IMG/VR virus record: IMGVR_UViG_3300030059_002116
Span: 1 to 37,791 of that record
Length of the DNA stretch: 37,791 nucleotides
Direction: 5' to 3' (one strand)
DNA from: a virus
Taxonomy: Duplodnaviria > Caudoviricetes
This document shows, one piece after another, positions 773 to 34,411 of the stretch (position 1 is its first letter; each line of letters opens with the position of its first letter). Below the pieces are notes generated by a model. That model was not told the DNA's origin, searched no databases, and saw only the letters and a list, made by a program, of their open reading frames with translations. Made by a program: the position numbers and the translations under genes.

Positions 773-1513
773 ATGGATCCCTTAACCATATCAATAGCCG
801 TAGGTGTTGCTAGTAAAGCATTTAGTGCCATTAAATCTGGTTTTGCAATGGGAAGAGACATAGAACAAATGTCTGGTGATATTGGTAGATGGATGGGGGC
901 TGTGAGTGATGTAGATAATGCAGAAAAACAAGCCAAAAACCCTCCCCTGTTTGGTAAATTGTTTAATGCAGGTTCTATCGAAGAAGCAGCGATGGCTGCC
1001 TACGCTGGAAAAAAGAAACTTGAGGAACAAAGATATGAACTCAAGATGTTTCTGAATCTAACTCATGGTCCTCAAGCGTATGATGAACTTCTTGCTATGG
1101 AAGGACAGATAAGAAAACAAAGACAAGAAACCATATACAAGCAACAAAAGATGCGTCAGCAAGTTTTAGGCGTAATAGGTTGGATTGTCTTGTTTATTGT
1201 TATTATATTGTTATTTGCAACAGTCGCAGTTATTTGGAATAAAAGAGCTAATGCTAAAGATTACACGCGTCAGCAAAAAATACAAAAAGGCATAATTGTT
1301 CTTCCTACTATGACCACATGCCGATTAAAAAAGCGTAAAGTGTATAAAGATAAATTGGCTTGTATATATCAAGGAGCCCAAAAAACATTTACATTAGATT
1401 TTACAGACTTAGCAAATGGCTGTCCTCGTAAATACAAATGTGTGCTAGATCCAAATGGCAAAGAACCATCAATTGATTCTGTTATGGAGAGTTTAAGGAG
1501 TATTGCTAAATAA
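773..1513 (+). CDS. Hypothetical membrane protein with C-terminal Cys-rich domain
   Basis: 246-aa ORF starting 'MDPLTI', with one TM helix (VLGVIGWIVLFIVIILLFATVAVIW) and four Cys in the C-terminal part. Confidence 0.65.
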   Translation: MDPLTISIAVGVASKAFSAIKSGFAMGRDIEQMSGDIGRWMGAVSDVDNAEKQAKNPPLFGKLFNAGSIEEAAMAAYAGKKKLEEQRYELKMFLNLTHGPQAYDELLAMEGQIRKQRQETIYKQQKMRQQVLGVIGWIVLFIVIILLFATVAVIWNKRANAKDYTRQQKIQKGIIVLPTMTTCRLKKRKVYKDKLACIYQGAQKTFTLDFTDLANGCPRKYKCVLDPNGKEPSIDSVMESLRSIAK

Positions 1514-2942
1514 TCCAATCACGATAGTTCTCAGCAAGAACCTGACTAGCTATATCTATTTTGTTTCTAAGAGCAATTAATATTTTATCATCAACCGTGT
1601 TTTCAGCGATAATATCAACATAGGTTACTTTACTTGTTTGACCGATTCTATGAGCTCTATCCTCGCTTTGTAACCGAACTTCTAAGTCATAGCTGTTGCT
1701 ATAATATATGACGGTAGTGGCTTGTGTTAAAGTTAAACCATAACCTCCTGTTCTAGGTTGCCCTACAAAAAACTTTACAGGATTGTTAGGGTCTTGAAAC
1801 TCCTTAACTACTCGTTGTCTTGAATCACTTGGTGTATCACCGTAGTAAGAACGAACACTCTCTTCACCATAAATAGAAGCTATCTTATCAGTTATGCTAA
1901 TAATGTCATGTGTATAGTTTGCCCATATGATAACGCTCCCACCAACTTCGTCAAGCACAGAAACTAACTCTGGCATTTTATTAGTAGGGAAAGTTTTTAA
2001 TGTTCCATCATCTAGCTTTACATGTCCCGAACAAACCTGTTGCAATCTAAGAAGTTGAGTAAGAACAGTTGTGGGAGTTACCGAACCATCTTCCATCATA
2101 GCTAATGCAAAAGTTTTTAAACTATCATACACTAAGCGTTGTTCTTTTGTTAATTCGACAACACGCTTTAGATAAACTTTACTTGGTAAATCCAAACAAT
2201 CTTCTTTGCGTACCCTATAACTAAACTTTTCTAATATTTGGTTTAACTCATCTAAACGTCTATAACCTACAATTTGGTTAAAGCTATGAGCTCCAAGAAC
2301 TCTACGTTTTATAATAGCATAATCATTCTGAAAGCTGTAAAAACTTTGGTGACCTAACAAATTATCATTCAAAAATTCACATTGGGTATATAAATCCATA
2401 GGACTTTTTGTAACTGGAGACCCTGTAAGTATTCTACGATATTTAGCTGACTTTCCTAATTTAACTATAGTCTTAGTGCGTTTAGCATCTTTACTTTTTA
2501 TAGTTGTACTTTCATCTATGACCATCATACTTGGCACGGCTTGCAAAAACTTTTCAGCCATAGCACTACCTTTTTTGGTACTAAAGGCTTCGACATTCAT
2601 AATGAATATTTTTAAGTTATCATTAGTTTGAAACAACTTTTTTTGTAAAGTTAACTGTTTTATACTTTGACTAGGGTTCCACAATACTGTGTCAGCTATA
2701 ACATGGTCAGGCATATGTGTTGGCAGTTCGCCTTGCTCCCAGTTTCGGTATACGCCTTTTGGTGCGACAATTAAACACCCCTCAAGTTTTCCTTGGTCAT
2801 AGAGTATACACATGTTGTCAATTAATACTTTTGACTTGCCTGTCCCCATGTCCATAAACAAAGCGTATTCTTCTTTATCCCAACTTTTTTTCAAAGCTGT
2901 GAGCTGATGTTCATAAGGTTGTAACTTAAATTTATATTTCAT
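1506..2942 (-). CDS. SNF2-family (SF2) DNA helicase
   Basis: Walker A 'MDMGTGKS', 'VIDEST', 'LTGSPV', 'TGGYGLTL', motif VI 'QSEDRAHRIGQ'. It is the only major gene on the - strand. Confidence 0.92.
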   Translation of the reverse strand: MKYKFKLQPYEHQLTALKKSWDKEEYALFMDMGTGKSKVLIDNMCILYDQGKLEGCLIVAPKGVYRNWEQGELPTHMPDHVIADTVLWNPSQSIKQLTLQKKLFQTNDNLKIFIMNVEAFSTKKGSAMAEKFLQAVPSMMVIDESTTIKSKDAKRTKTIVKLGKSAKYRRILTGSPVTKSPMDLYTQCEFLNDNLLGHQSFYSFQNDYAIIKRRVLGAHSFNQIVGYRRLDELNQILEKFSYRVRKEDCLDLPSKVYLKRVVELTKEQRLVYDSLKTFALAMMEDGSVTPTTVLTQLLRLQQVCSGHVKLDDGTLKTFPTNKMPELVSVLDEVGGSVIIWANYTHDIISITDKIASIYGEESVRSYYGDTPSDSRQRVVKEFQDPNNPVKFFVGQPRTGGYGLTLTQATTVIYYSNSYDLEVRLQSEDRAHRIGQTSKVTYVDIIAENTVDDKILIALRNKIDIASQVLAENYRDWII

Positions 2943-4982: not shown

Positions 4983-6500
4983 ATGAATATATCAGAACAA
5001 TTTTTAAGTTTATTCACAGGAAACCAACGAGCACACGGTATTGTTGATCTGAGTGATGGCTTTAAAGGTCGCAAGAAAAAAGCCCTTTACAAAATAATGA
5101 AGTCGCCCCCTACAAAAGAGTTATGGGAAAAACATTTAGAAGGTGAGCAAGGTCTAGGTATTATACCCATAAGGGATGATAATACTTGTGTGTGGGGAGC
5201 AATTGATGTTGATAACTACGAAGTAGACCACAAGAAAATAGTAACCCGATTAGCTGAAGCCAAAATAATTGGTTGGGTAGGAAGAAGTAAATCAGGGGGT
5301 GCTCATATATATTTCTTTTTTAAAGAGCCTTTACAAGCAAGTTTTATACAAACGAAGCTAACCGAAATCGCAGCTGGACTAGGATTGGCGGATAGCGAAA
5401 TATTTCCAAAACAAGCCGAAATACTTGTTGACAGAGGGGATACTGGAAATGCTTTAAATATGCCTTACTATAAAGGAGAATACAGCACTCGTAGCGTTTA
5501 CGACTTTAAGTGTAATACTTTAACCCCTGAAACTTTTGTTAAGAAAGCTCAGAAGTATCGAATTAGCCTTTCAGAGTTTGAAGAATACCAAATAGTAAAA
5601 GTAGAAAACAAGGTACTTCCTGAGGGTCCACCTTGTTTACAACAGTTATGCAGTATTGGGTTTGCTGAAGGCTCACGAAACAATGCTTTGTTTAATCTAG
5701 GCGTTTACTCAAGAATGTTTGACCCTGATGGCTGGGAGTCGTTAGTGCAACGATATAATGTAGATTATGTAAGCCCTCCTTTGTCACACAACGAAGTGGG
5801 TGCTGTCATTAAACAGTTGCAACGCAAAGATTATTTTTACAAATGTGACGACCAACCTATTAAACCTTATTGTAATAAAGATGTGTGCCTTACTCGTAAG
5901 CATGGTGTAGGTCCATCAGGTGTACAAAATGACATGTCGGCTTTAACTAAAATAGATGGTGACCCACCTATATGGATTCTTAATGTGGATGGTAGCCGTG
6001 TGGAATTAAGTACGGATGGATTGATAAGTCAAACACGCTTTCAAAGAGATTGTGTGTCACAGATTAATAAACTCCCTGCTACTGTTAATCAAAGAGCGTG
6101 GCAGACTAGAATACAAATGTTATTGGACAATCTAACCATTGTGGAAGTACCACCTGATGCTACCTTAAAAGGTGAGTTTGAAGACTTACTCCATTCTTTT
6201 TGTAGCGAAAGAGCTAAAGGTGCTGAGCGTGAAGATATTTTACAAGGTGTAGCCGTCTGGCTTGAGCAACGAGTATTCTTTCAAGTCAAGGATATTAAAA
6301 AGCATCTGTCTGTAAATGATTTTAACCATTACTCTTCTAGTAGAATAACTTTACGATTACAAAATCAACACGCTGAAAAAATGTTTTGGAGGGTAAAAGG
6401 CAAAGGCGTTCATGTTTGGTCTTTGCCACAGGATTATTTTCAAGGCGATGAGGAAACATTAGATCTACCCGATCTGCCACAAGAAAGGAATGTAATATGA
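4983..6500 (+). CDS. DNA primase (AEP-like primase with PriCT-type domain)
   Basis: 'WGAIDVD' (DxD), 'RSKSGGAHIYFF' (SxH), 'GSRNNALFNLG' PriCT-like. Start moved to ATG 4983 after an AGGAG RBS. Confidence 0.8.
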   Translation: MNISEQFLSLFTGNQRAHGIVDLSDGFKGRKKKALYKIMKSPPTKELWEKHLEGEQGLGIIPIRDDNTCVWGAIDVDNYEVDHKKIVTRLAEAKIIGWVGRSKSGGAHIYFFFKEPLQASFIQTKLTEIAAGLGLADSEIFPKQAEILVDRGDTGNALNMPYYKGEYSTRSVYDFKCNTLTPETFVKKAQKYRISLSEFEEYQIVKVENKVLPEGPPCLQQLCSIGFAEGSRNNALFNLGVYSRMFDPDGWESLVQRYNVDYVSPPLSHNEVGAVIKQLQRKDYFYKCDDQPIKPYCNKDVCLTRKHGVGPSGVQNDMSALTKIDGDPPIWILNVDGSRVELSTDGLISQTRFQRDCVSQINKLPATVNQRAWQTRIQMLLDNLTIVEVPPDATLKGEFEDLLHSFCSERAKGAEREDILQGVAVWLEQRVFFQVKDIKKHLSVNDFNHYSSSRITLRLQNQHAEKMFWRVKGKGVHVWSLPQDYFQGDEETLDLPDLPQERNVI

Positions 6501-6799
6501 CGTATAGCTTTTATGACAAATACTACCACTCTATAACAAAATGGCACGAAGAACGAAACCTTATAGATGGAAGCACTGATAAAGATCAAGTATTGAAGTT
6601 AATGCAAGAAGTGGGTGAATTGTCTGACTCTGTGTGCAAGGGCAAAGATATAAAAGATGACATAGGGGATATATTAGTTGTTCTAATTAATATATGTTTA
6701 AGAAACGACACTAACTTTCCAGATTGCATGGAAGTTGCGTATAACGAAATTAAAGATAGAAAAGGCACAATGAAAGAGGGGGTATTCATTAAATGTTAA
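6497..6799 (+). CDS. MazG-like nucleotide pyrophosphohydrolase
   Basis: 'KLMQEVGEL...DDIGDILVVL' ExxE/DxxD helices and 'AYNEIKDRKG'. Confidence 0.85.
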   Translation: MTYSFYDKYYHSITKWHEERNLIDGSTDKDQVLKLMQEVGELSDSVCKGKDIKDDIGDILVVLINICLRNDTNFPDCMEVAYNEIKDRKGTMKEGVFIKC

Positions 6800-10021: not shown

Positions 10022-10052
10022 AGAGTGCTCGTTCTTGTAACGAGCACTTTTT
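10022..10052 (+). terminator. Rho-independent terminator
   Basis: Stem AGTGCTCGTT/AACGAGCACT followed by a T-run, right after the stop codon. Confidence 0.8.
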
Positions 10053-10110: not shown

Positions 10111-10743
10111 ATGAAGACTTATGTTGTATTAGAAAATAGTTATGGGAGCCGATATAATAGCCCCTATACTTTTTTTGTTTTTCCATCCTTACAAGCTACT
10201 AAAGACTGTAAAGAAATTAACGAGTTTAGTTTAGTCTATAGCACTGTAGAGCAATTACAAAAAACATACAAACCCCAAGAATTGTATTCTATAATGAGTT
10301 CAATAAAGACGACCTTTGCACCTGCTCGTGATGGCTATGAAGACGAGTATCATCAGTTCTTTATATTCGTTCAAAACAACGCAAAGAAATATAAAGCACC
10401 TAAAGAGGACTTAAATTGGTCTGCCGTCCGGTCAGCCCTCCAAGCACACCTTACGCAAAAAGTGCAACCCAAACGAAAGATTACACCTTCAGTTAAGATA
10501 CTGTCCGACATAGTTATGAAAGCTGTTTCTTCTTCTAGTTATAAAGACGAAGCTGTAATAACGGTGAACAAAGGTAATCCTTACACATATGGTAGTAACC
10601 GATACCATAACTTTGAAGCTATTGCCTCTTCAAAAACAGTAGCTGAAGCTCTGGTAAAAATGAAAAAACTTATTCCTGGAGGGAATAGGGTAGATATAAA
10701 ATTAGCGATACAACGAGATGCTATATACATAGGGGACAGGTAA
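10111..10743 (+). CDS. Hypothetical protein, possible C-terminal DNA-binding domain
   Basis: AGAAAGGAG RBS; basic C-terminal 'NPYTYGSNRYHNFE...KTVAEAL' domain; first gene of the modification operon. Confidence 0.65.
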   Translation: MKTYVVLENSYGSRYNSPYTFFVFPSLQATKDCKEINEFSLVYSTVEQLQKTYKPQELYSIMSSIKTTFAPARDGYEDEYHQFFIFVQNNAKKYKAPKEDLNWSAVRSALQAHLTQKVQPKRKITPSVKILSDIVMKAVSSSSYKDEAVITVNKGNPYTYGSNRYHNFEAIASSKTVAEALVKMKKLIPGGNRVDIKLAIQRDAIYIGDR

Positions 10744-10744
10744 T

Positions 10745-11692
10745 ATGAATATTAATAAAGCAGATGAGCTAGAGCCAATTGAGCGTTTCTTTTATTGGAT
10801 AAATGAAAGGCACGCTATATATCAAAAACGAATACAAGGCTTTGCTCCCCCTTGGACAGATGATTCTATTCTACAAAGCTATAAATTTACAAACCCATTC
10901 CGTGAAAATGATAAAGTTACCATATGGATGCGACAGAACTGGACGAAGCCAAATGGCAATCGACCAATGGGTGAAATTTTGTTTAACTGCTGTTTGTTTC
11001 GTATGGTGGGAACTATAGAATTTGCTGATGAGCATAAGTGGGTTTATGAAGACTATGGCTGGTCTGTTGAAAGAACCAAAGAAACAATATCTGCTCGGTT
11101 AGAGAAAAAATTGCGGACCTTTACTGGAGCGTATATAATAACTAATCAAGGTTTAAAGTTACCCAAAGGAGAAGTTGTAGTTGACCATTTCCTCAAACCA
11201 ATATGGGAAAATAAAGAAAGGCTTGCAGAGGTTGCGACCAAAACTAACTCGTTACAAGAAGTACACCGTGCGATGCTTGCCTATAAAGGGTGGGGTGGAG
11301 GGGGCTTTATGTCTTACGAAGTGGTTACCGATCTCAATCACACAAACGTATTGGACACGGCGACAGACCGTTTTACTTGGGCAAACGCTGGTCCAGGGGC
11401 AAAACGAGGACTAAACCGAATACACGAAAAATTGTTAACACAAGCCATGAGCCAACACCAAGCTAATACTCAAATGCAAAACTTATTACAAAAATCATCA
11501 CAGTATTTGTTAAGTCATGTCCCAATAGAAGAAGTTGATATGCGAACTATTGAGCACAGCCTTTGTGAATGGGATAAATGGGAACGAGTTAGATTAGAAC
11601 AAGGTACACCTCGTAGTAAGTACGATCCTGTGCAAGCCTTTAAAGATAAAGAGTTTTTAGAGACAGGGAGTGTTGGCAATGTTGTGTCTTAA
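10745..11692 (+). CDS. 5-hydroxymethyl-dU DNA kinase family protein (aGPT-Pplase1 / HhH-glycosylase-like helical fold)
   Basis: Family signature 'FFYWINERHAIY.KR..G..PPWTDDSILQSYKFTNPFRENDKVT', 'GGFMSYEVVTD', 'GPGAKRGL', 'IEHSLCEWDK'. Confidence 0.8.
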   Translation: MNINKADELEPIERFFYWINERHAIYQKRIQGFAPPWTDDSILQSYKFTNPFRENDKVTIWMRQNWTKPNGNRPMGEILFNCCLFRMVGTIEFADEHKWVYEDYGWSVERTKETISARLEKKLRTFTGAYIITNQGLKLPKGEVVVDHFLKPIWENKERLAEVATKTNSLQEVHRAMLAYKGWGGGGFMSYEVVTDLNHTNVLDTATDRFTWANAGPGAKRGLNRIHEKLLTQAMSQHQANTQMQNLLQKSSQYLLSHVPIEEVDMRTIEHSLCEWDKWERVRLEQGTPRSKYDPVQAFKDKEFLETGSVGNVVS

Positions 11693-12011
11693 ATGTAAAA
11701 AAGGAAAAACAGTTGTTGAAGATAGTAGACTGTTAGTTTATACTGATCACTTTAATAAGTTTATAAGTGGAACAACACGACGTAAAAGAGTGTGTTTGGT
11801 TTGCAATCATAGTTTCAGAACAGTAGAAATAGAACAAGGGGAACAATACCTACCCAAAGAACTTCCCCCTAAACCTGGATCTCGTTTGGCTAGTACACGA
11901 AAGAAACAAATTAAAATAAGTGGGCTTAATACTAAAGACGTAGATGAGTTAACAGACGAAGAGTTAGAAGAAGCAATATACAACGGAACATTAAACTTTG
12001 AGGAGGGATAA
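11679..12011 (+). CDS. NrdR-N-terminus-like zinc-ribbon protein
   Basis: 'CLKC...TVVEDSR...RRKRVCLVCNHSFRTVE' matches the NrdR Zn ribbon; no ATP-cone follows. Confidence 0.7.
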   Translation: MLCLKCKKGKTVVEDSRLLVYTDHFNKFISGTTRRKRVCLVCNHSFRTVEIEQGEQYLPKELPPKPGSRLASTRKKQIKISGLNTKDVDELTDEELEEAIYNGTLNFEEG

Positions 12012-12812
12012 ATGATACCAATATATATATTAACTAGAGGAAGAGTAAGTAAACAAACCACATGGGAGAGTATAGGAGTACACGCTCAAAACTCAGAGCA
12101 TACTGTGTTGGTATGTCCTACTGAAGAAGTGTCTAGGCATCAACATTTTAACAGAAGAGCATTGGATCGTGGAGACGTAAAGGGTGCTCCTAATGTTAGG
12201 CAATGGATACTAGAACATGCAAAGGAAAAGGACTATGATAAAATTATTGTTTTGGATGACGATCTTATATTTGGTCGCAGAGCACACCCTGACTTACCAT
12301 CTTTAAGAAAAACAACTAAGAACGAGATGTATGAATTGTGGGATAGAATGGAAGCTCTGTTAGATGGCTTTGTGCATGTTGGGGTTAGTCCACGCCAGAT
12401 GAATGATAAACATTTTCCACATGTGTTCAAAAAGTGTATGCGACAAAACGCTTTGCATGGGCTACGACCTAAGGATATACTCCGCACAGATTTAAAATAT
12501 AATGATGTAGAGTTAATGGAGGATTACCATATGACATTAGGTTTGTTTGGTATAGGTCAAGCTAACGCAGTTATTACTGATTGGACATGGGATCAGCGTG
12601 GTGCAAGTGGAGCTCCCGGAGGTTGCAGTCTTTACCGTGATGCTGCATTACAAGAGGAGGCTAGTAAAAAGTTGGAAAGTAAGTACCCTGACTTTGTCAA
12701 GTCTTTACAAAAAGAAACTAAAACAGGATGGGAAGGAATGAAAACACGATGGGATGTACGAGTACAATGGCGAAAAGCTGCGAAACAAGGAGGCTGTGAA
12801 TATGGAGTATAA
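12012..12812 (+). CDS. GT-A fold DNA-base glycosyltransferase-like protein (TET/JBP-associated TAGT/GREB1-like)
   Basis: 'IYILTRGR' start, 'RQWIL', DxD motif 'IIVLDDDL', 'MEDYHMTL', 'PGGCS.YR'. Confidence 0.7.
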   Translation: MIPIYILTRGRVSKQTTWESIGVHAQNSEHTVLVCPTEEVSRHQHFNRRALDRGDVKGAPNVRQWILEHAKEKDYDKIIVLDDDLIFGRRAHPDLPSLRKTTKNEMYELWDRMEALLDGFVHVGVSPRQMNDKHFPHVFKKCMRQNALHGLRPKDILRTDLKYNDVELMEDYHMTLGLFGIGQANAVITDWTWDQRGASGAPGGCSLYRDAALQEEASKKLESKYPDFVKSLQKETKTGWEGMKTRWDVRVQWRKAAKQGGCEYGV

Positions 12813-13797
12813 ACAAGAGCCCCCTAACGCTATTCAAATAGAATTAGCTGAGGGCTGTAATCTAGCCTGTTCTTTTTGTGGTATACAAGCTATACGAGAG
12901 AATGGGGCTGACGGTCCAAAGAAGGTAAGAGGCAAAGGCTCTGGTCCATATAAGTTTCTTAGTATGGAAGTAGCTGAACGCATTGCCGATTCTATAGTGG
13001 AAGCCAAATGGAACAGTAGGTTAGAGTTTGCTATGCACGGTGAGCCAACGATGCACCCCCATTATCACGATATGATAAAGTTGTTTAGAAATAAATTACC
13101 TAAAGCCTCTATTATGATGACAAGTAATGGTGGTGGTCTTTTACTAGGCGACGGCTTAAACGCTAACATCAACAAACTGATGGACTCAGGTTTAAATGTT
13201 TTGTTTTTAGATAACTATGATGGAATAAAAATAGTAGATAAAATACAAGCTAAATATGAAGGTCCTCATGAGGTAATACAATATCCCCATGATAAGAGAG
13301 GCAACCCACACAAACGAAGAAAGCCTAATGAGCATCATATTGTAGTCGGAGCAGATTTAACTTTAGCTAGTGATGGAACACATGCACAAGTTAGTAATCA
13401 TGCCGGATCGGCTTTCCCACTTAACGATAAGCAAGAGGGCAAACGATGTGCCAAACCCTTCAGGGAGCTCAGCTTAAGATGGAATGGTAAGGTTGCTCTT
13501 TGTTGTAATGACTGGACAGGTTGGTACAAGTGTGGGGATGTAATGGAGGAAAAAATAAATGAAATCTGGACTAATGACTTGTTTCTTGGTGCAAGAACAA
13601 GATTATATCACGGTTCACGTGACTTCGGACCGTGTCGTGGCTGTGATAACGCTACTATTCGTAATGGGCTTTTGCCTGACCGAATGGGCAAAGTGGAGAT
13701 GCCGAAGCCAACAATTCAAACAGATAAACATATTGAAGAAGCGTTAAAAGGTGGCACTTACACAAAACAAGTCAAGCCTATATTTGACTTTATTTAA
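12802..13797 (+). CDS. Radical SAM protein with SPASM/twitch domain
   Basis: CxxxCxxC 'CNLACSFC', 'HGEP', C-terminal 'CAKPF...CCNDW...PCRGC'. Start at ATG 12802 after AAGGAGG. Confidence 0.88.
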   Translation: MEYKQEPPNAIQIELAEGCNLACSFCGIQAIRENGADGPKKVRGKGSGPYKFLSMEVAERIADSIVEAKWNSRLEFAMHGEPTMHPHYHDMIKLFRNKLPKASIMMTSNGGGLLLGDGLNANINKLMDSGLNVLFLDNYDGIKIVDKIQAKYEGPHEVIQYPHDKRGNPHKRRKPNEHHIVVGADLTLASDGTHAQVSNHAGSAFPLNDKQEGKRCAKPFRELSLRWNGKVALCCNDWTGWYKCGDVMEEKINEIWTNDLFLGARTRLYHGSRDFGPCRGCDNATIRNGLLPDRMGKVEMPKPTIQTDKHIEEALKGGTYTKQVKPIFDFI

Positions 13798-13899
13798 GGC
13801 TTGTTCGCGTGTTAGAAACTTGCTTTTTGTAAGTTTGTAGGGCATAAATAATTCAAGCTGTTAAAACAGCTTAAAAACAACCCATAGAAAGGGGAAGCA

Positions 13900-14910
13900 A
13901 TGGCTTTATATGGAAAGACTATGCGTAGTGACCACAGCTTTTGTTGTGTTAACGTCAGTGACGCATTATATTTAATAAAACAATCTATTGAAGAAAACGG
14001 TGTACGAGTTGAAACTAGGAATGGACCAGCTTTAGAGTTTCCTAACCCTTGTATCATTACATACAACAACCCAAAAGAAAGGGTACTGTTTTACCCTGAG
14101 CGTGATGCCAACCCCATCTTCCATTTTATGGAAAGTATGTGGATGCTTGATGGGCGTAATGATTTATATTTTATAAAATATTTCAATAAACAAATGGAAC
14201 AATACAGTAATGACAAGCATACGGTGTCAGGTGCTTATGGTTATCGATGGCGAAGGTACTTTGCAAGAGACCAATTTGAAACAGTAATACATCGTTTAAG
14301 AAAGTATCCTAACGATCGTAGGACTGTCTTGAGTATGTGGGATGCAGTGCATGACCTACGGAAGGACAATGAGTCTAGGGATTTACCTTGCAATACTCAC
14401 ATTTATTTTTACATACGAAACAATATGCTGGATATGACAGTGTGCAATCGTAGTAATGATTTGATATGGGGAGCTTGTGGAGCTAATGCTGTGCATATGA
14501 GTTTCTTACAAGAGTATATTGCTACAATGGTTGGTGTAGAAGTGGGAACATATACTCAGTTTTCTAACAATCTACACGCTTATGATTTTACTTTAAAAAA
14601 GCTAGAAGGTATGCAACCTGACTATGATTCTTATGCCTCTAGAAATTTTACCACCTTACCTCCGTTGATTGATGATATTAAAACATTTGATAATGAATTA
14701 ACTTTGTGGTTACAACACCGAGCAGTGTCTAAGGATTGGACAAACTCTATATTCGCTAATGTTGCTCAGCCTATGCTACAAACATGGAATGCTTGGAAAG
14801 ACAAAGACTGGAAAAAAGCATATGCTAATGCTGAACGGATAGGTTCAGATGATTGGTGCGTAGCAACTTTAGAATGGTTAAACCGTAGAAAGGATTTATT
14901 TAATGGATAG
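13900..14910 (+). CDS. Thymidylate-synthase homologue, probably dUMP hydroxymethylase
   Basis: Catalytic 'DLPCN', 'NRSNDLIWGACGAN' (Asn at the dUMP-specificity position), 'NNLHAY'. Divergent from canonical ThyA and embedded in a modification cluster. Confidence 0.8.
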   Translation: MALYGKTMRSDHSFCCVNVSDALYLIKQSIEENGVRVETRNGPALEFPNPCIITYNNPKERVLFYPERDANPIFHFMESMWMLDGRNDLYFIKYFNKQMEQYSNDKHTVSGAYGYRWRRYFARDQFETVIHRLRKYPNDRRTVLSMWDAVHDLRKDNESRDLPCNTHIYFYIRNNMLDMTVCNRSNDLIWGACGANAVHMSFLQEYIATMVGVEVGTYTQFSNNLHAYDFTLKKLEGMQPDYDSYASRNFTTLPPLIDDIKTFDNELTLWLQHRAVSKDWTNSIFANVAQPMLQTWNAWKDKDWKKAYANAERIGSDDWCVATLEWLNRRKDLFNG

Positions 14911-15202
14911 GGGATATAGCCTTATAATAGAACAAGTTAAGGACTTAGCAAATGAAGATGTAATAGAATTACATAAAGCCGAACTGTCGTACGGCGACAG
15001 TTGGAAAAAGCGAGGGGGTGTCGGTGCGTTTATGATGCTTGCTCGTAAATGGGATAGGCTTCAGAACCAAGTGGATGGACACAGTTATGATATATTTAAA
15101 GCTATCTCAGAAGACCAACGCCCCGAAGGCATACTAGATGATATACGTGATTTGCGTAGATATCTGTTGTTGGTTGAGGCAGAAATGATAGGTGATGACT
15201 GA
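14903..15202 (+). CDS. Nucleotide-modification-associated all-alpha protein (Nmad1/DUF1599-like)
   Basis: 'SYGDSWKKRG..GAFMMLARKWDRL...DDIRDLRRYLLL'. Confidence 0.65.
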   Translation: MDRGYSLIIEQVKDLANEDVIELHKAELSYGDSWKKRGGVGAFMMLARKWDRLQNQVDGHSYDIFKAISEDQRPEGILDDIRDLRRYLLLVEAEMIGDD

Positions 15203-15359
15203 TCTAGACACAGAAGTAAAAGCCGTTTGCGAAGACTGTCAAAAGGAACAAATAGTTACTTTTCGTAAACTTAAAAATAAATGGGTTATCTGCAGTTGCG
15301 GACAGCCAATGATTATAAAGGTACAAAATGCAATTCCCCCTATTCACACCACCGACTGA
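15195..15359 (+). CDS. Small Zn-ribbon protein (54 aa; not in the ORF track)
   Basis: MTDLDTEVKAVCEDCQKEQIVTFRKLKNKWVICSCGQPM...; CxxC and CxC pairs; fills the gap before the polymerase. Confidence 0.55.
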   Translation: MTDLDTEVKAVCEDCQKEQIVTFRKLKNKWVICSCGQPMIIKVQNAIPPIHTTD

Positions 15360-17247
15360 GTGGGTTATGCCTGACGGCTACCCTGATTTAAGAGAAGCAA
15401 AAGAAATAGCTATTGACCTTGAAACACGTGATCCAAACCTTTTAACAATGGGCTCTGGGTGGGCTAGGGGTGATGGCGAAATAATAGGAGTTGCCGTAGC
15501 AACACACAGCGAATCATGGTACTTTCCTATACGCCACCAGAATGGCACTAACCTTGACCCTGATCAGACGATGAGGTGGGTTAAAGACTTATGTAGCATA
15601 AACCGTGACTATATTATGCACAACGCCATGTATGACGCTGGTTGGCTCTGGCAAGAAGGTATTGATATAAAAGGTCGCATGATTGACACAATGGTTGTCG
15701 GTGCTTTGCTTGATGAAAACAGGTTTAGCTATGCTCTTAACTCTTTGGGTCGTGATTATCTTGGTGAGCGTAAGAATGAAAAAGATTTACAAGAAGCTGC
15801 GAGGCAGTTTGGTGTCAATGCTAAAAGTGAAATGTATAAACTCCCTGCTCATTTTGTAGGAGCTTACGCTGAACAAGATGCAGCTTTGACAATGAAGCTA
15901 TGGCAGTTATTTAAAGGTCTAATTATCAAAGAAGATATTGCCGACATATTTGAATTAGAAACAAATGTTCTACAAGTCGTACTTGCTATGCGAAAAAAGG
16001 GTGTACGAGTGGACTTACCAAAAGCACAAGAGCTTAAAGAGAGGCTTGAAAAGCAAGAGATAGAAGTTTTAAAATCAGTGGGAGGTGAGGGTATTGATAT
16101 CTGGGCTGCTCGTAGTATTGCAAAAGCCTTTGATGCTGTTGATTTAAGATACCCAACTACTGAAAAGTCTAAGCAACCAAGTTTCACTAAAAACTTTTTA
16201 GCCAATCACGAGCACGCTTTGCCTCGTGCCGTCGTTAGGGCAAGAGAACTTAATAAGGCTCGTACAACTTTTATAGATACTATACTCAAGCACCAACATA
16301 AAGGTAGGATATTTGCTGAAGCCCATCCACTTCGCAGTGATGAGGGTGGGACAGTTACAGGTCGATTTAGCTACAGTAACCCCAACCTTCAACAAGTCCC
16401 TGCTCGTAACGCTGAAATAGGTCCGTTAATTCGTGGTTTGTTTTTACCTGAAGAAGGTGAGTTATGGGGGGCGTTTGATTACAGTAGCCAAGAGCCTCGT
16501 TTAGTTGTTCATTATGCAGGATTATTAGACTTTAAAGGTGCAATGGACTTCGTTGAGCAATACCAAAAGGACAAGCATACTGACTTCCACCAGATGGCAG
16601 CTGATATTGTGGGAGTGCCTCGTAAGCAAGCTAAAGATATTAATTTAGGTTTGTTCTATGGCATGGGTAAGAATAAACTTGCTGAGCAGTTGGGTCTTGA
16701 ACTAGAAGATGCCAAAGACTTATTCGCCGAGTATCATGGCAAAGTTCCTTTTGTCCAGCAGTTAGCTGATTATGCTACAGCTCGAGCAAGTAAAAAAGGT
16801 GTTATAAGAACGCTATTGGGACGTAGATGTAGGTTTGATAAATGGGAGCCTAACGCTTATGGAACATTCAAACCATTACCCTATCAAGAAGCATACAATG
16901 AACACGGACCAGCGATTCGTAGATGCTTTACTTATAAGGCATTGAACAAATTAATTCAAGGGAGTGCTGCTGACCAAACAAAAGCTGCGATGGTAGCTCT
17001 CCACAAAGAAGGCATAGTGCCAATGATACAAGTTCATGATGAATTAGATGTGTCTGTACAAAGTGAAGCTCAAGCAAAAAGGATACAAGAAGTTATGGAA
17101 AACTGTGTGGAAATGAAAGTACCTAGCGTTGTTGATGCTGAGTTTGGTTTGAGCTGGGGCATGGCAAAGAAAACATTTAGTGATAAACCGTGGACAAGAG
17201 GAAAAGCAGATGGACACAGCAAGCAACAAACGAACAACAAACTTTAA
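15328..17247 (+). CDS. Family A DNA polymerase with 3'-5' exonuclease
   Basis: Exo 'IAIDLET', 'HNAMYD', 'YAEQD'; motif A 'FDYSSQEPR', motif B 'RKQAKDINLGLFYG', motif C 'QVHDEL'. Confidence 0.95.
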   Translation: MQFPLFTPPTEWVMPDGYPDLREAKEIAIDLETRDPNLLTMGSGWARGDGEIIGVAVATHSESWYFPIRHQNGTNLDPDQTMRWVKDLCSINRDYIMHNAMYDAGWLWQEGIDIKGRMIDTMVVGALLDENRFSYALNSLGRDYLGERKNEKDLQEAARQFGVNAKSEMYKLPAHFVGAYAEQDAALTMKLWQLFKGLIIKEDIADIFELETNVLQVVLAMRKKGVRVDLPKAQELKERLEKQEIEVLKSVGGEGIDIWAARSIAKAFDAVDLRYPTTEKSKQPSFTKNFLANHEHALPRAVVRARELNKARTTFIDTILKHQHKGRIFAEAHPLRSDEGGTVTGRFSYSNPNLQQVPARNAEIGPLIRGLFLPEEGELWGAFDYSSQEPRLVVHYAGLLDFKGAMDFVEQYQKDKHTDFHQMAADIVGVPRKQAKDINLGLFYGMGKNKLAEQLGLELEDAKDLFAEYHGKVPFVQQLADYATARASKKGVIRTLLGRRCRFDKWEPNAYGTFKPLPYQEAYNEHGPAIRRCFTYKALNKLIQGSAADQTKAAMVALHKEGIVPMIQVHDELDVSVQSEAQAKRIQEVMENCVEMKVPSVVDAEFGLSWGMAKKTFSDKPWTRGKADGHSKQQTNNKL

Positions 17248-17737
17248 AAGCCTGGATACTATTTATGATGCACAGTTTCTTATGCGATATCATACCGTTC
17301 CAATACAAGGATTGAGGCAGACAGTGGGAGCACATTCATACGCAGTAGCTATACTTATTGACCAACTTTGGGAAAATGTACCGAAGCAGTTAATCATGGC
17401 AGCTCTATACCACGATGTTCCTGAGATGGTCTTAGGCGATATTCCTGCTACAGCGAAATGGGATTATCCTGAAGTCAAACGAGCCTTTGAAAAAGCAGAA
17501 GCAAAGGTGATGGAAGACCTTGGATTGACTTTTATACTTAGCCCAAAAGACAAAGCTCGTTTAAAGATGGCAGACATGTTAGAATTAGTTCTCTATTGTG
17601 AAAAGCACGCTGACGCAAACACTCAAATGAAAATAATTATGAACACTGGAGTCCAGTATTTGTTTAGCAATTTCAGTGAGTTGAAGGACTTTGAGCCTGT
17701 GAAAGAAGTTTTACGGAATCGCAATTTGAGTAACTAG
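17210..17737 (+). CDS. HD-domain 5'-deoxynucleotidase (YfbR-like)
   Basis: 'RYHT...QTVGAHSY', 'ALYHDVPE..LGDIP', 'LKMADMLE'. Confidence 0.85.
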   Translation: MDTASNKRTTNFKSLDTIYDAQFLMRYHTVPIQGLRQTVGAHSYAVAILIDQLWENVPKQLIMAALYHDVPEMVLGDIPATAKWDYPEVKRAFEKAEAKVMEDLGLTFILSPKDKARLKMADMLELVLYCEKHADANTQMKIIMNTGVQYLFSNFSELKDFEPVKEVLRNRNLSN

Positions 17738-17814: not shown

Positions 17815-18087
17815 ATGAATATTATTACTAACACATGGCAAGATTACGAGGAGGAAACTCTTAGGTATACTATAGGTTACACCGTCACCGAGTTCAAGGG
17901 GCGTGGTAGTTATGAAACTCGTAAGTTCAAAACACTAGCAAAAGCTCAGCATTTCTATAGGTTGCATAAGACAGCCTTTCCTAATGCTAGGATTATTATT
18001 TATGCAGTATGTCAGCCCCCTAATCGTCAGCTTACGGTAAGCCTTCCAGTAAGCGATAATAATTGGGAGATGCAAAAAGTTATATGA
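17815..18087 (+). CDS. Hypothetical protein
   Basis: Own promoter-like sequence (TTGCTG-16-TAAAGT) and CAGAAAGG RBS. Confidence 0.6.
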   Translation: MNIITNTWQDYEEETLRYTIGYTVTEFKGRGSYETRKFKTLAKAQHFYRLHKTAFPNARIIIYAVCQPPNRQLTVSLPVSDNNWEMQKVI

Positions 18088-18548
18088 ACATATTCTGGTT
18101 AGCAAACGCCCCCAAAAAAATTGCAGAGCATCATTGTGACAAACATATTGTTAAGATGCCCTTAGAAATGACACAGATGTTATGCACTGTTCACGACAGG
18201 TATGATAATGACAGCCCCTACAAACCTGTCCACCAAAAGCATCCCTGCACTCTGTGGATAGGTGCTTCAATAGAAAACTATGTACTAGCGTGGAAAGTAG
18301 GTGAACAGTTATTTAAAGAATACACATATAGATATGGCAAAGTTCACAAGTCACAATCTATATTGTATTCCTTGCGTTGTCCCCCAACAAACTTAACAAC
18401 TCAAGGACTTACTACTCGACCTCAGGCAATGCCTGATATATATAAACAACCAGATACAATACAAGCCTATCGCAGTTACTATTTAGGTGAGAAAATGTAT
18501 ATGGCTAAGTGGACAAAACGTAACCAACCTTATTGGAGTATAATATAA
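18084..18548 (+). CDS. Pyrimidine-dimer DNA glycosylase/DenV-like family protein
   Basis: 'MNIFWL...HCDKHIVKMPLE..QML', 'HPCTLW', 'EYTYRYGKVHKS', 'PQAMPD...YRSYY'. Confidence 0.7.
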   Translation: MNIFWLANAPKKIAEHHCDKHIVKMPLEMTQMLCTVHDRYDNDSPYKPVHQKHPCTLWIGASIENYVLAWKVGEQLFKEYTYRYGKVHKSQSILYSLRCPPTNLTTQGLTTRPQAMPDIYKQPDTIQAYRSYYLGEKMYMAKWTKRNQPYWSII

Positions 18549-33813: not shown

Positions 33814-34002
33814 ATGCAGCTTTACATTATTGAAAAACTCAGTAATATATTAAAACAACGAAAAGAAAATCTACAGACTCAAATAACAAACGGTATTGTA
33901 GAAGACTTTATTGCATTCAAGGAACTGCGAGGAAGATTTGCAGAAATTGAATATTTACAACAGGAATTAAAAGACCTGCAAAAAAAGGTGGAAAATGAGT
34001 AA
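33814..34002 (+). CDS. Hypothetical coiled-coil protein preceding GroES
   Basis: 62 aa; overlaps the GroES start. Confidence 0.6.
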   Translation: MQLYIIEKLSNILKQRKENLQTQITNGIVEDFIAFKELRGRFAEIEYLQQELKDLQKKVENE

Positions 34003-34411
34003 ACTAATAGTCCCTAGGCGATTTGCCAGTACTCCCCAAGACTCCCAAGAAAAAGAAACCCAAGACGTACCTATTTTAGAAAAGTTACCAGAACCAACAG
34101 GTTGGAGAATATTAGTTCTTCCATACCGAGGAAAAGGTAAAACTGAAGGAGGCGTTTTTATACCTGATGCAGCAGTAGAAAGAGAAGCTCTTGCTACTGT
34201 TTGTGCTTTAGTCCTTAAAGTGGGACCTCTTGCATACAAAGATACCGATAAATTTGGCGAAAGTGGTGCATGGTGTAAAGAACAAGACTGGGTTATATTT
34301 GGTCGATATGCAGGAAGCCGTTTTAAAATAGAAGGTGGCGAAGTAAGACTTCTAAACGATGATGAAGTATTAGCTCGTATTAATGATCCAGCAGACATAT
34401 TACATATATAG
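33995..34411 (+). CDS. groES: Phage-encoded co-chaperonin GroES
   Basis: 'PTGWRILV...KTEGGVFIP...VLKVGP...VIFGRYAG...EVRLLNDDEVLA'. Confidence 0.88.
   Translation: MSKLIVPRRFASTPQDSQEKETQDVPILEKLPEPTGWRILVLPYRGKGKTEGGVFIPDAAVEREALATVCALVLKVGPLAYKDTDKFGESGAWCKEQDWVIFGRYAGSRFKIEGGEVRLLNDDEVLARINDPADILHI

Follow-up and report, generated by a model that had tools for sequence, protein, structure and literature searches.

Which modified base does a phage make when a thymidylate synthase (TS) homologue and an aGPT-Pplase1 protein (Pplase1) are encoded next to a glycosyltransferase (GT) and a radical S-adenosylmethionine (SAM) enzyme? This question is raised by positions 10745–15202 of IMG/VR virus record IMGVR_UViG_3300030059_002116, the whole of which (37,791 bases, about 63% complete) was analysed and is referred to here as the window. 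The span is filled by six co-directional plus-strand open reading frames (ORFs), abutting or overlapping, which encode in order a PF18723 protein, a zinc ribbon, a TAGT-family GT, a radical SAM protein with a SPASM domain, the TS homologue and a 99-aa protein; genes for PolA and an HD nucleotidase come next (Table 1). A first-pass annotation from the sequence alone had described a thymidine-hypermodification cluster with a 5-hydroxymethyluracil (hmU) kinase, a GT and a radical SAM enzyme; its ORF coordinates and strand were confirmed and the cluster of TS homologue, GT and radical SAM gene is real, but the gene called a kinase is none. The kinase and amino-acid transferase of M6-type phages are replaced in this cluster by a GT, and we favour, with moderate confidence, a kinase-independent glycosyl-hmU (base-J-like) that would replace thymine and whose sugar would be altered by the radical SAM enzyme, as gene context, gene fusions and a BtrN-like fold suggest.

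Linkage of the radical SAM gene to glycosyltransferases

We surveyed the neighbourhoods of the radical SAM gene in 81 loci (the best 80 of 182 matches plus the window) and those of Pplase1 in the best 80 of 573 matches. In the radical SAM survey, a GT gene lay within 3 kb in 78 of the 81 loci, or 29 of 31 clusters at 70% identity, and a TS gene lay within 10 kb in 79 loci (30 of 31 clusters), with Pplase1 present in 71. The three loci without a counted GT begin at the radical SAM gene (L067), have an adjacent weak GT1 match (L074), or end just past the gene with no GT found (L084). The partner GTs are of three kinds, TAGT, T4 AGT-like and T4 BGT-like, with GT-A only in 51 loci, GT-A plus AGT-like in 12, AGT-like only in nine and BGT-like only in six; the AGT-like and BGT-like labels rest on Atlas features (0.97–0.98) and are leads only, and hhalign gave the two GT-B families low probabilities against T4 BGT (13%) and AGT (2%). 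The order GT, radical SAM, TS recurs in 21 of the 24 IMG/VR loci fetched with the GT, the other three stopping at or within the GT, which argues that the arrangement is not due to chance.

Seen from Pplase1, the radical SAM gene is an optional add-on to a GT. Of the loci in the Pplase1 survey, 75 had a TS gene; a GT accompanied it in 73, a radical SAM gene as well in 19 and an M6 enzyme in none. Every one of the 19 radical SAM loci had a GT, and 54 GT loci had no radical SAM gene. In addition, the radical SAM domain is fused to a TAGT domain in three proteins (P0132, from L110, P0123 and P0129), to an AGT-like GT-B domain in P0121 and to a weak GT4-like domain in P0150, while no fusion to TS or Pplase1 was found in the eight long homologues scanned. 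Elsewhere the same slot holds an FkbM methyltransferase, a sulfotransferase or a nucleotidyltransferase-cupin protein.

FkbM and radical SAM genes occupy non-overlapping loci of the Pplase1 survey (12 and 19, respectively), yet they occur together in L075 and L216, so they are not mutually exclusive; and pairwise-identity correlations of 0.61–0.77 between genes reflect kinship rather than a special co-evolution of radical SAM enzyme and GT.

Several loci depart from the common layout. In L066, L068, L069 and L071 a cytidylyltransferase-like domain fused to a cupin lies between Pplase1 and an AGT-like GT (for example L068:8123-8992), suggesting a phage-made nucleotide sugar. In larger phages (L073, L074, L099 and L104) the radical SAM gene and GT occur without Pplase1, with TS several kb away, amid genes for a uracil-DNA glycosylase, a GT9-like protein and DUF2284, and in some cases a PfkB kinase or an adenylosuccinate-synthetase-like gene. 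A methyltransferase gene precedes Pplase1 and TS in L212 (7162-8001) and L214, where no GT was detected, a possible methyl-hmU variant.

Enzymes of the cluster and the missing kinase

The supposed hmU kinase at 10745–11692 has PF18723 ('helical domain') as its only Pfam match (167.7 bits against a cut-off of 25, residues 13–286), and no Walker A motif was found in it. It resembles M6 gp55 (33% identity) rather than M6 gp54, and M6 gp51–54 have no match in the window. Pfam places gp54 in PF18748, gp51 in PF18724 and gp55 in PF18723, and passages in PMC8989533 describe gp54 as a P-loop kinase and gp55 as dispensable for the M6 adduct. Table 3 of Lee 2018 (PMC5889632) swaps the gp51 and gp55 labels relative to Lee 2022 (PMC8989533) and Pfam, and we follow the latter two. 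The kinase identity was thus rejected on family, motif and closest M6 relative.

The predicted model of this Pplase1 (pLDDT 92) has an HhH/ADDT-like helical transferase fold, ADDT denoting the amino-acid:DNA transferases. Its top match was 8z2m, the PaMx11 glycinyltransferase PUGT (Z 10.8, modest for a helical protein; root mean square deviation (rmsd) 4.3, 228 residues aligned), followed within about 1 Z by a queuine salvage enzyme and HhH glycosylases. PUGT uses catalytic residues E243, T244 and C247 in an E-x-x-x-C motif, according to passages in PMC11472151; the equivalent E270-H-S-L-C274 of Pplase1 keeps the Cys in 64 of 64 sequences and the Glu in 47 of 64, with His or Asn replacing the Thr. 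Sequence and model together suggest that the Pplase1 of the window is a paralogue of the amino-acid:DNA transferases and probably active. Foldseek with the Pplase1 model did not recover its relatives, and no significant PDB match by sequence was found for Pplase1, the GT, the two GT-B families or the 99-aa family. Pplases are described as confined to hypermodifying phages and absent from SPO1 (passages in PMC5889632), and hypermodifying phages as ending with either T or the hypermodified base (passages in PMC8989533). Both the kinase branch and the GT branch retain Pplase1, whose substrate is therefore probably hmU itself. Two tandem Pplase1 paralogues stand ahead of the GT and radical SAM genes in L077:7486-9218.

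Among 36 records searched, the hmU DNA kinase profile PF18748 (5-HMUDK) matched only M6, the positive control, with no match in the window or in any of 19 relatives at least 90% complete, and PF18724 (ADDT, or Pplase2) likewise exceeded its cut-off only in M6 and in none of those 19; L073 lay outside both searches. On the window PF18724 reached 16.2 bits against a cut-off of 26.2, falling on the Pplase1 gene (11243–11578), and its weak matches in relatives also fall on Pplase1 genes. In six-frame phmmer searches of six near-complete relatives, M6 gp51–54 and two deoxycytidylate (dCMP) deaminases had no match below E 0.3, and UvrD was alone in showing a clear Walker A motif. Four relatives encode a 150-aa protein with a Walker-A-like string, which was set aside, as the residues of the string vary and M6 gp54 does not match it. 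PF18747 and PF18751 had no match in 23 records, in searches that lacked a phage positive control and carry little weight. The M6/ViI-type route runs through a kinase and an ADDT via 5-phosphomethyl-deoxyuridine (5-PmdU), and neither enzyme was found in the window. The first-pass annotation had recognised no amino-acid:DNA transferase and no pyridoxal phosphate (PLP) enzyme, and none was found in the window; the search that it proposed for aGPT-Pplase2 elsewhere came back empty for the window and the 19 near-complete relatives. Its statement on the transferase therefore stands for PF18724, with the caveat that Pplase1 is itself an ADDT paralogue with the catalytic Cys.

In place of these enzymes stands a GT whose assignment to the TAGT/base-J-like GT-A family agrees with the first reading. 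It matched TAGT PF20691 with 51.1 bits (cut-off 27.5), is 28% identical to PhiJL001 gp22 and keeps acidic motifs D82-D83-D84 and E170-D171 (96–98%) along with G203-G204-C205 over 46 sequences. Phage GT-A DNA transferases structurally resemble the trypanosome base-J glucosyltransferase, according to passages of the Pyle et al. preprint. From family and context, this GT would move a sugar onto a hydroxymethylpyrimidine in DNA.

The TS homologue is closest to the group of YuA, M6 gp58 and PhiJL001 gp24 (42–43% identity) and contains the catalytic Cys164 and, as first noted, a dUMP-type Asn196 within a PF00303 match. Of 82 aligned TS sequences, 79 have Asn in the specificity column; the exceptions are T4 gp42, a truncated gene and an unrelated TS of the Asp type. 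Asn196 specifies dUMP as the substrate and, with the 42% identity to M6 gp58, leads us to infer that the enzyme makes 5-hydroxymethyl-dUMP (5-hmdUMP). The HD nucleotidase behind PolA is 39% identical to M6 gp59 and homologous to JL001 gp25, and its role is likely nucleotide-pool control. The 99-aa protein had been called Nmad1-like (DUF1599), a label that did not hold up: PF07659 had no match in the window, while two controls matched, none of 12 members of the 99-aa family matched at E 1, and the protein belongs to no Pfam family. Conserved among the accessory genes of hmU clusters, it follows TS or HD genes and has a relative, Pam3_54, in an M6-type cluster; from this gene position it is possibly a nucleotide-pool hydrolase.

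The radical SAM protein, which probably starts at 12805 with AGGAGG upstream, contains the CX3CX2C motif (C35/C39/C42) and auxiliary cysteines C232, C250, C294 and C297 that align with those of BtrN, the twitch dehydrogenase of butirosin synthesis, plus an extra C251. BtrN ranked first by three methods: Foldseek with the radical SAM model (E 8e-16, TM 0.82 by target), a VIA structure comparison (Z 22.8, rmsd 2.2, 208 aligned; next row 15.6) and a profile comparison (E 6e-15). In the same structure comparison viperin scored Z 12.1 and spore photoproduct lyase (SPL) Z 6.1. A radical SAM enzyme of M6 gp53 type was rejected, as SPL, the model for gp53 in passages of PMC8989533, lies far below BtrN and tblastn with gp53 had no match in the window. 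Where BtrN has Phe, C251 is retained by 120 of 120 near homologues and, among representatives with a residue at that site, by 142 of 146. In radical SAM epimerases a spare Cys donates the hydrogen, the proposed donor in EpeE being Cys223 (passages in PMC8326336); a counterpart to C251 was not established, as no alignment extended to EpeE.

The family counts 1,028 homologues at E ≤0.001 and 281 representatives at 1e-30 and is basic, with a median pI of 8.7. As a lone query the radical SAM protein found no viral locus, and an alignment query did; in 185,579 prokaryote genomes only three loci were found, all in metagenome-assembled genomes and all carrying this cluster. A profile search for the enzyme in JL001, IME392 and M6 was empty, in a run without a positive control. 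The PADLOC pVip match is weak (E 1e-5) and covers profile positions 2–79 of 257, the N-terminal part. From fold, GT linkage and fusions, the enzyme would act on a sugar or cyclitol carbon. Two family members (P0122 and P0146) are broken by inteins, one with an HNH domain, and P0192 has a fused C-terminal domain bearing a PIG-L-like motif (weak, E 6e-5 pairwise to the IME392 protein, with no Pfam match), hinting at amino sugars.

A predicted pathway and its rivals

Taking these observations together, we propose a pathway in four steps. First, the TS homologue would convert dUMP to 5-hmdUMP, which host kinases, the proposed makers of hmdUTP in phage SH-Ab 15599 (passages in PMC13458397), would raise to hmdUTP for incorporation by PolA, while small accessory proteins and the HD protein would bring dTTP down. 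Second, the TAGT would move a sugar from a nucleoside diphosphate (NDP)-sugar to the 5-hydroxymethyl oxygen, yielding base-J-like glycosyl-hmU in DNA. Third, the radical SAM enzyme would abstract a hydrogen from a sugar carbon, and Cys251 may permit its return and thereby epimerisation, the alternative being oxidation to a keto sugar; epimerisation is favoured because the extra Cys251 stands where the dehydrogenase BtrN has Phe. Its substrate would be the NDP-sugar donor or the DNA-bound sugar, and we lean only slightly to the donor, given that the partners of the enzyme include both alpha- and beta-type transferases; Burke et al. raised, as speculation, the use of nucleotide sugars as substrates by epimerases encoded next to GTs (passages in PMC8256090). 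Fourth, Pplase1 Cys274 may attack C6 of a flipped hmU and turn unglycosylated hmU into thymine, which is the weakest step and rather doubtful. The modification likely serves as protection from host nucleases. The narrower scheme in which the radical SAM enzyme remodels a sugar already on hmU in double-stranded DNA, and Pplase1 reverts leftover hmU to T, all with no kinase, has in our judgement a fairly slim chance.

Several points weigh against the predicted glycosyl-hmU. The two surveys share many contigs and are not independent, and the profiles that counted GTs were built from the same loci. The absence of kinase and ADDT rests on the relatives, because the window is incomplete. Asn196 marks dUMP use but cannot separate a hydroxymethylase from a methylase, and six-frame phmmer found no dCMP deaminase in the six near-complete relatives. 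The T6 TAGT is believed to extend an existing glucose with another (passages in PMC13390438), so the family does not set the acceptor of a lone TAGT. The radical SAM protein is just 18–20% identical to BtrN, a common fold does not prove function, and no close homologue was found in cultured phages among 50,697 phage records. A CC motif at the place of C251 is common in SPASM domains, so this residue is not diagnostic. For the fourth step, a hydroxyl without phosphate is a poor leaving group and no reductant was identified, and SP10, whose glutamyl-thymine arises with Pplase1 present and Pplase2 undetected (passages in PMC5889632), fits Pplase1 as a transferase.

This SP10 precedent also favours an order in which Pplase1 acts first, its Cys274 putting an amino acid, polyol or sugar on hmU, after which the TAGT would glycosylate the adduct and the radical SAM enzyme tailor the linker or sugar. 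Such an order would suit the invariant Cys, the frequent E270, PUGT as best fold match and a TAGT that, as in T6, extends a sugar. However, no kinase to supply a leaving group was found in the window or the 19 near-complete relatives, the M6 relative gp55 is dispensable, and AGT- or BGT-like enzymes often occupy the GT slot, the hydroxymethyl group being the direct target of their T4 relatives; we hold this order to be unlikely.

Somewhat less probable still is a pathway in which the GT makes glycosyl-hmU while the radical SAM enzyme acts not on the sugar but on the base or free nucleotides, by hydroxymethyl oxidation or deoxygenation or in viperin-like fashion. The weak pVip match and the viperin score could be read this way, as could the basic pI of the family and a TS nearby in 30 of 31 clusters. 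The radical SAM gene is, however, found only with GTs in the Pplase1 survey, where GTs also stand without it, its fusions join it to GTs and in none of the eight long homologues to TS or Pplase1, and BtrN lies 7 Z units above other folds.

It is very unlikely that the TS makes plain dTMP, with GT and radical SAM enzyme building a glycan for virion proteins or the host surface. Asn196 is common to ordinary TS, and the distant loci L073, L074, L099 and L104 do without Pplase1 and lie near heptose-type genes; but the TS is nearest to the M6/YuA/JL001 group, TAGT, AGT and BGT relatives are DNA transferases, and the genes lie between Pplase1, TS and PolA in nearly all loci. The first-pass variant in which a kinase phosphorylates hmU and glycosylation follows on the phosphate is the least probable, a highly improbable route for which one may cite the phosphate-bearing glycosylated thymidines of SP-15, YerA41 and Carin-5 (passages in PMC12686479), the incomplete window and an AAA_28/dNK-like gene adjoining Pplase1 in IME392, against a supposed kinase that has no P-loop, PF18748 in none of the 19 near-complete relatives and PF18747 and PF18751 likewise without a match, albeit with no phage positive control. 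What survives of that annotation is thus the prediction of a glycosylated, radical-SAM-tailored hmU, for which gene context, fusions and the BtrN fold argue, and not its phospho-glycosylated form.

Lineage, gene layout and known systems

Other genes of the window encode an SNF2 helicase, primase and UvrD, which with PolA form the replication module, and terminase, portal and capsid proteins (Pfam, PHROGs). Its major capsid protein is 73–74% identical to those of HTVC023P, 023Pt_psg01 and DSL-LC04 and its PolA 51–55% identical to HTVC023P-type polymerases, identities that make the window phage, by sequence, a relative of marine HTVC023P-type phages (pelagiphage-related), in agreement with the marine lineage first proposed. 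Two genes had gone unmentioned before, the zinc ribbon within the span and the HD nucleotidase after PolA; the zinc-ribbon gene is variable and outside the core, with a match in one of 24 related loci. The family hidden Markov model of the basic protein that precedes Pplase1 matches JL001 gp18 (E 2.6e-12) and M6 gp49 (E 3.5e-6), both of which sit before the modification genes in their own phages. A MazG-like gene outside the cluster, lacking in most relatives, is a possible means of dTTP/dUTP depletion.

Table 1 Features of the modification cluster and associated genes in the window.
Feature	Coordinates	Strand	Evidence or closest relatives
MazG-like pyrophosphatase, outside cluster	6497..6799	+	Pfam, PHROGs
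Basic accessory protein, 210 aa, pI 9.5	10111..10743	+	Homologue of PhiJL001 gp18, M6 gp49
Stand-alone aGPT-Pplase1 (PF18723)	10745..11692	+	Pfam E 4.7e-49; M6 gp55 orthologue
Small NrdR-like zinc-ribbon protein	11670..12011	+	PF22811 27.7 bits, cut-off 27.2
TAGT-family GT-A glycosyltransferase	12012..12812	+	PF20691 E 2e-13; phrog_842 E 3e-38
BtrN-like twitch radical SAM + SPASM/twitch	12754..13797	+	Profile, fold, motif
TS homologue, M6/YuA/JL001 dUMP hydroxymethylase group	13900..14910	+	PF00303 E 6e-21
99-aa acidic accessory protein	14903..15202	+	53% identity to Pam3_54
Family A DNA polymerase (PolA)	15328..17247	+	Pfam
HD/YfbR-like 5'-deoxynucleotidase	17180..17737	+	PF12917 E 1.4e-9

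Promoter and terminator scans of the window returned counts at chance level only; directly upstream of the cluster, a 12-pair hairpin with a T run follows the DUF932 gene (10022–10050), in a scan whose counts were likewise at chance level. The SNF2 helicase gene (1506–2942, minus strand) is inverted relative to the replication module in the window and close relatives and co-directional in L028 and L029. Many relatives share with the window a phrog_624 protein (18063–18548) encoded behind the HD gene, and one stretch from a relative scored weakly against a pyrimidine-dimer glycosylase family. A GroES-like co-chaperonin gene (33995–34411) lies amid the head genes, and the CG dinucleotide is depleted across the window (observed/expected 0.68; other dinucleotides 0.89–1.10).

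The HTVC023P-type pelagiphages belong to the same lineage (capsid 73%) and have the same four-gene core, in that Wittmers et al. listed TS, aG/PT-PPlase1, 5'-deoxynucleotidase and glucosyltransferase genes from annotation (passages in PMC9599517). The term 'radical SAM' is absent from the main text of that paper, and its passages on these genes name neither a missing kinase nor a base. Phages RP13, EP_H11 and a related coliphage have Pplase1 without a kinase (passages in PMC13697223), and passages of the Pyle et al. preprint count ThyS-linked GTs and neighbouring 'viperins', some of which may, judging from the weak pVip match, belong to the radical SAM family described here. No report of a radical SAM and GT pairing in phage hypermodification was found, subscription papers and supplements being outside the scope of the search, and none of phage base J or Pplase1 activity was found in literature listings. 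Without the radical SAM gene, the Pplase1, GT and TS core is not new, and it is also present in PhiJL001.

The cultured phages PhiJL001, Ralstonia RSL1 and Escherichia IME392 share Pplase1, GT and an Asn-type TS with the window and differ from it in that no homologue of its radical SAM enzyme was found. They have no PF18748 kinase and no ADDT above the cut-off, with Pam3 matching as a control, and no base analysis of their DNA was found in the literature. The jumbo phage RSL1 (ORF229–238; L219:240-9336) encodes Pplase1, an Asn-type TS, three annotated glucosyltransferases, one of them a confirmed TAGT, NDP-sugar genes, a sulfotransferase and an APS kinase, with no HMUDK or ADDT, which makes it a candidate for a sulfated glycosyl-hmU. 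The IME392 coliphage (L134:6292-12607) encodes a PIG-L de-N-acetylase, a BGT-like GT, Pplase1, the AAA_28/dNK-like gene, an Asn-type TS and an HD nucleotidase and is a candidate for an amino-sugar thymidine.

In the literature consulted, every amino-acid or amine route of thymidine hypermodification begins with a DNA kinase. The cluster in the window points to a second, sugar-based branch from hmU with interchangeable GTs and optional tailoring enzymes, present in abundant HTVC023P-related marine phages. If this is true, base-J-like DNA would be common in phages, and a nearly virus-restricted radical SAM family would do sugar chemistry for DNA; a bias of sequencing against these phages is another possible effect of bulky thymidine sugars.

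With the M6, PaMx11, ViI, PhiW-14 and SP10 systems (passages in PMC5889632 and PMC8989533) the cluster shares an Asn-type TS, Pplase1, an HD nucleotidase, a gp49-like gene and a place beside PolA. It differs in having a GT instead of a P-loop 5-HMUDK, ADDT and PLP or flavin enzyme, and a BtrN/twitch-type radical SAM enzyme where M6 gp53 is SPL-like. BtrN itself is the best fold and sequence match, with the CX3CX2C motif and four aligned auxiliary cysteines in common, whereas the window enzyme has Cys251, basic insertions and a linkage to viral DNA GTs. Sugar-bearing thymidines have been measured in SP-15, YerA41, Carin-5 and Pbunaviruses (passages in PMC12686479, PMC13697223 and PMC12191111); these are phosphate-bearing long linkers or tetritol and pentose adducts with other gene sets, unlike a TAGT-made hmU glycoside. 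No family of the J-binding protein (JBP)/TET dioxygenase type was found in 30 ORFs (Pfam) and 50 ORFs (PHROGs) of the incomplete window. The closest parallel in product is base J, made by JBP and the base-J glucosyltransferase (JGT) of kinetoplastids: the predicted product is likewise an O-glycosyl-hmU and the GT-A family structurally resembles JGT, but in the window phage hmU would arise from the TS homologue before replication rather than from a dioxygenase, and the sugar would be further altered.

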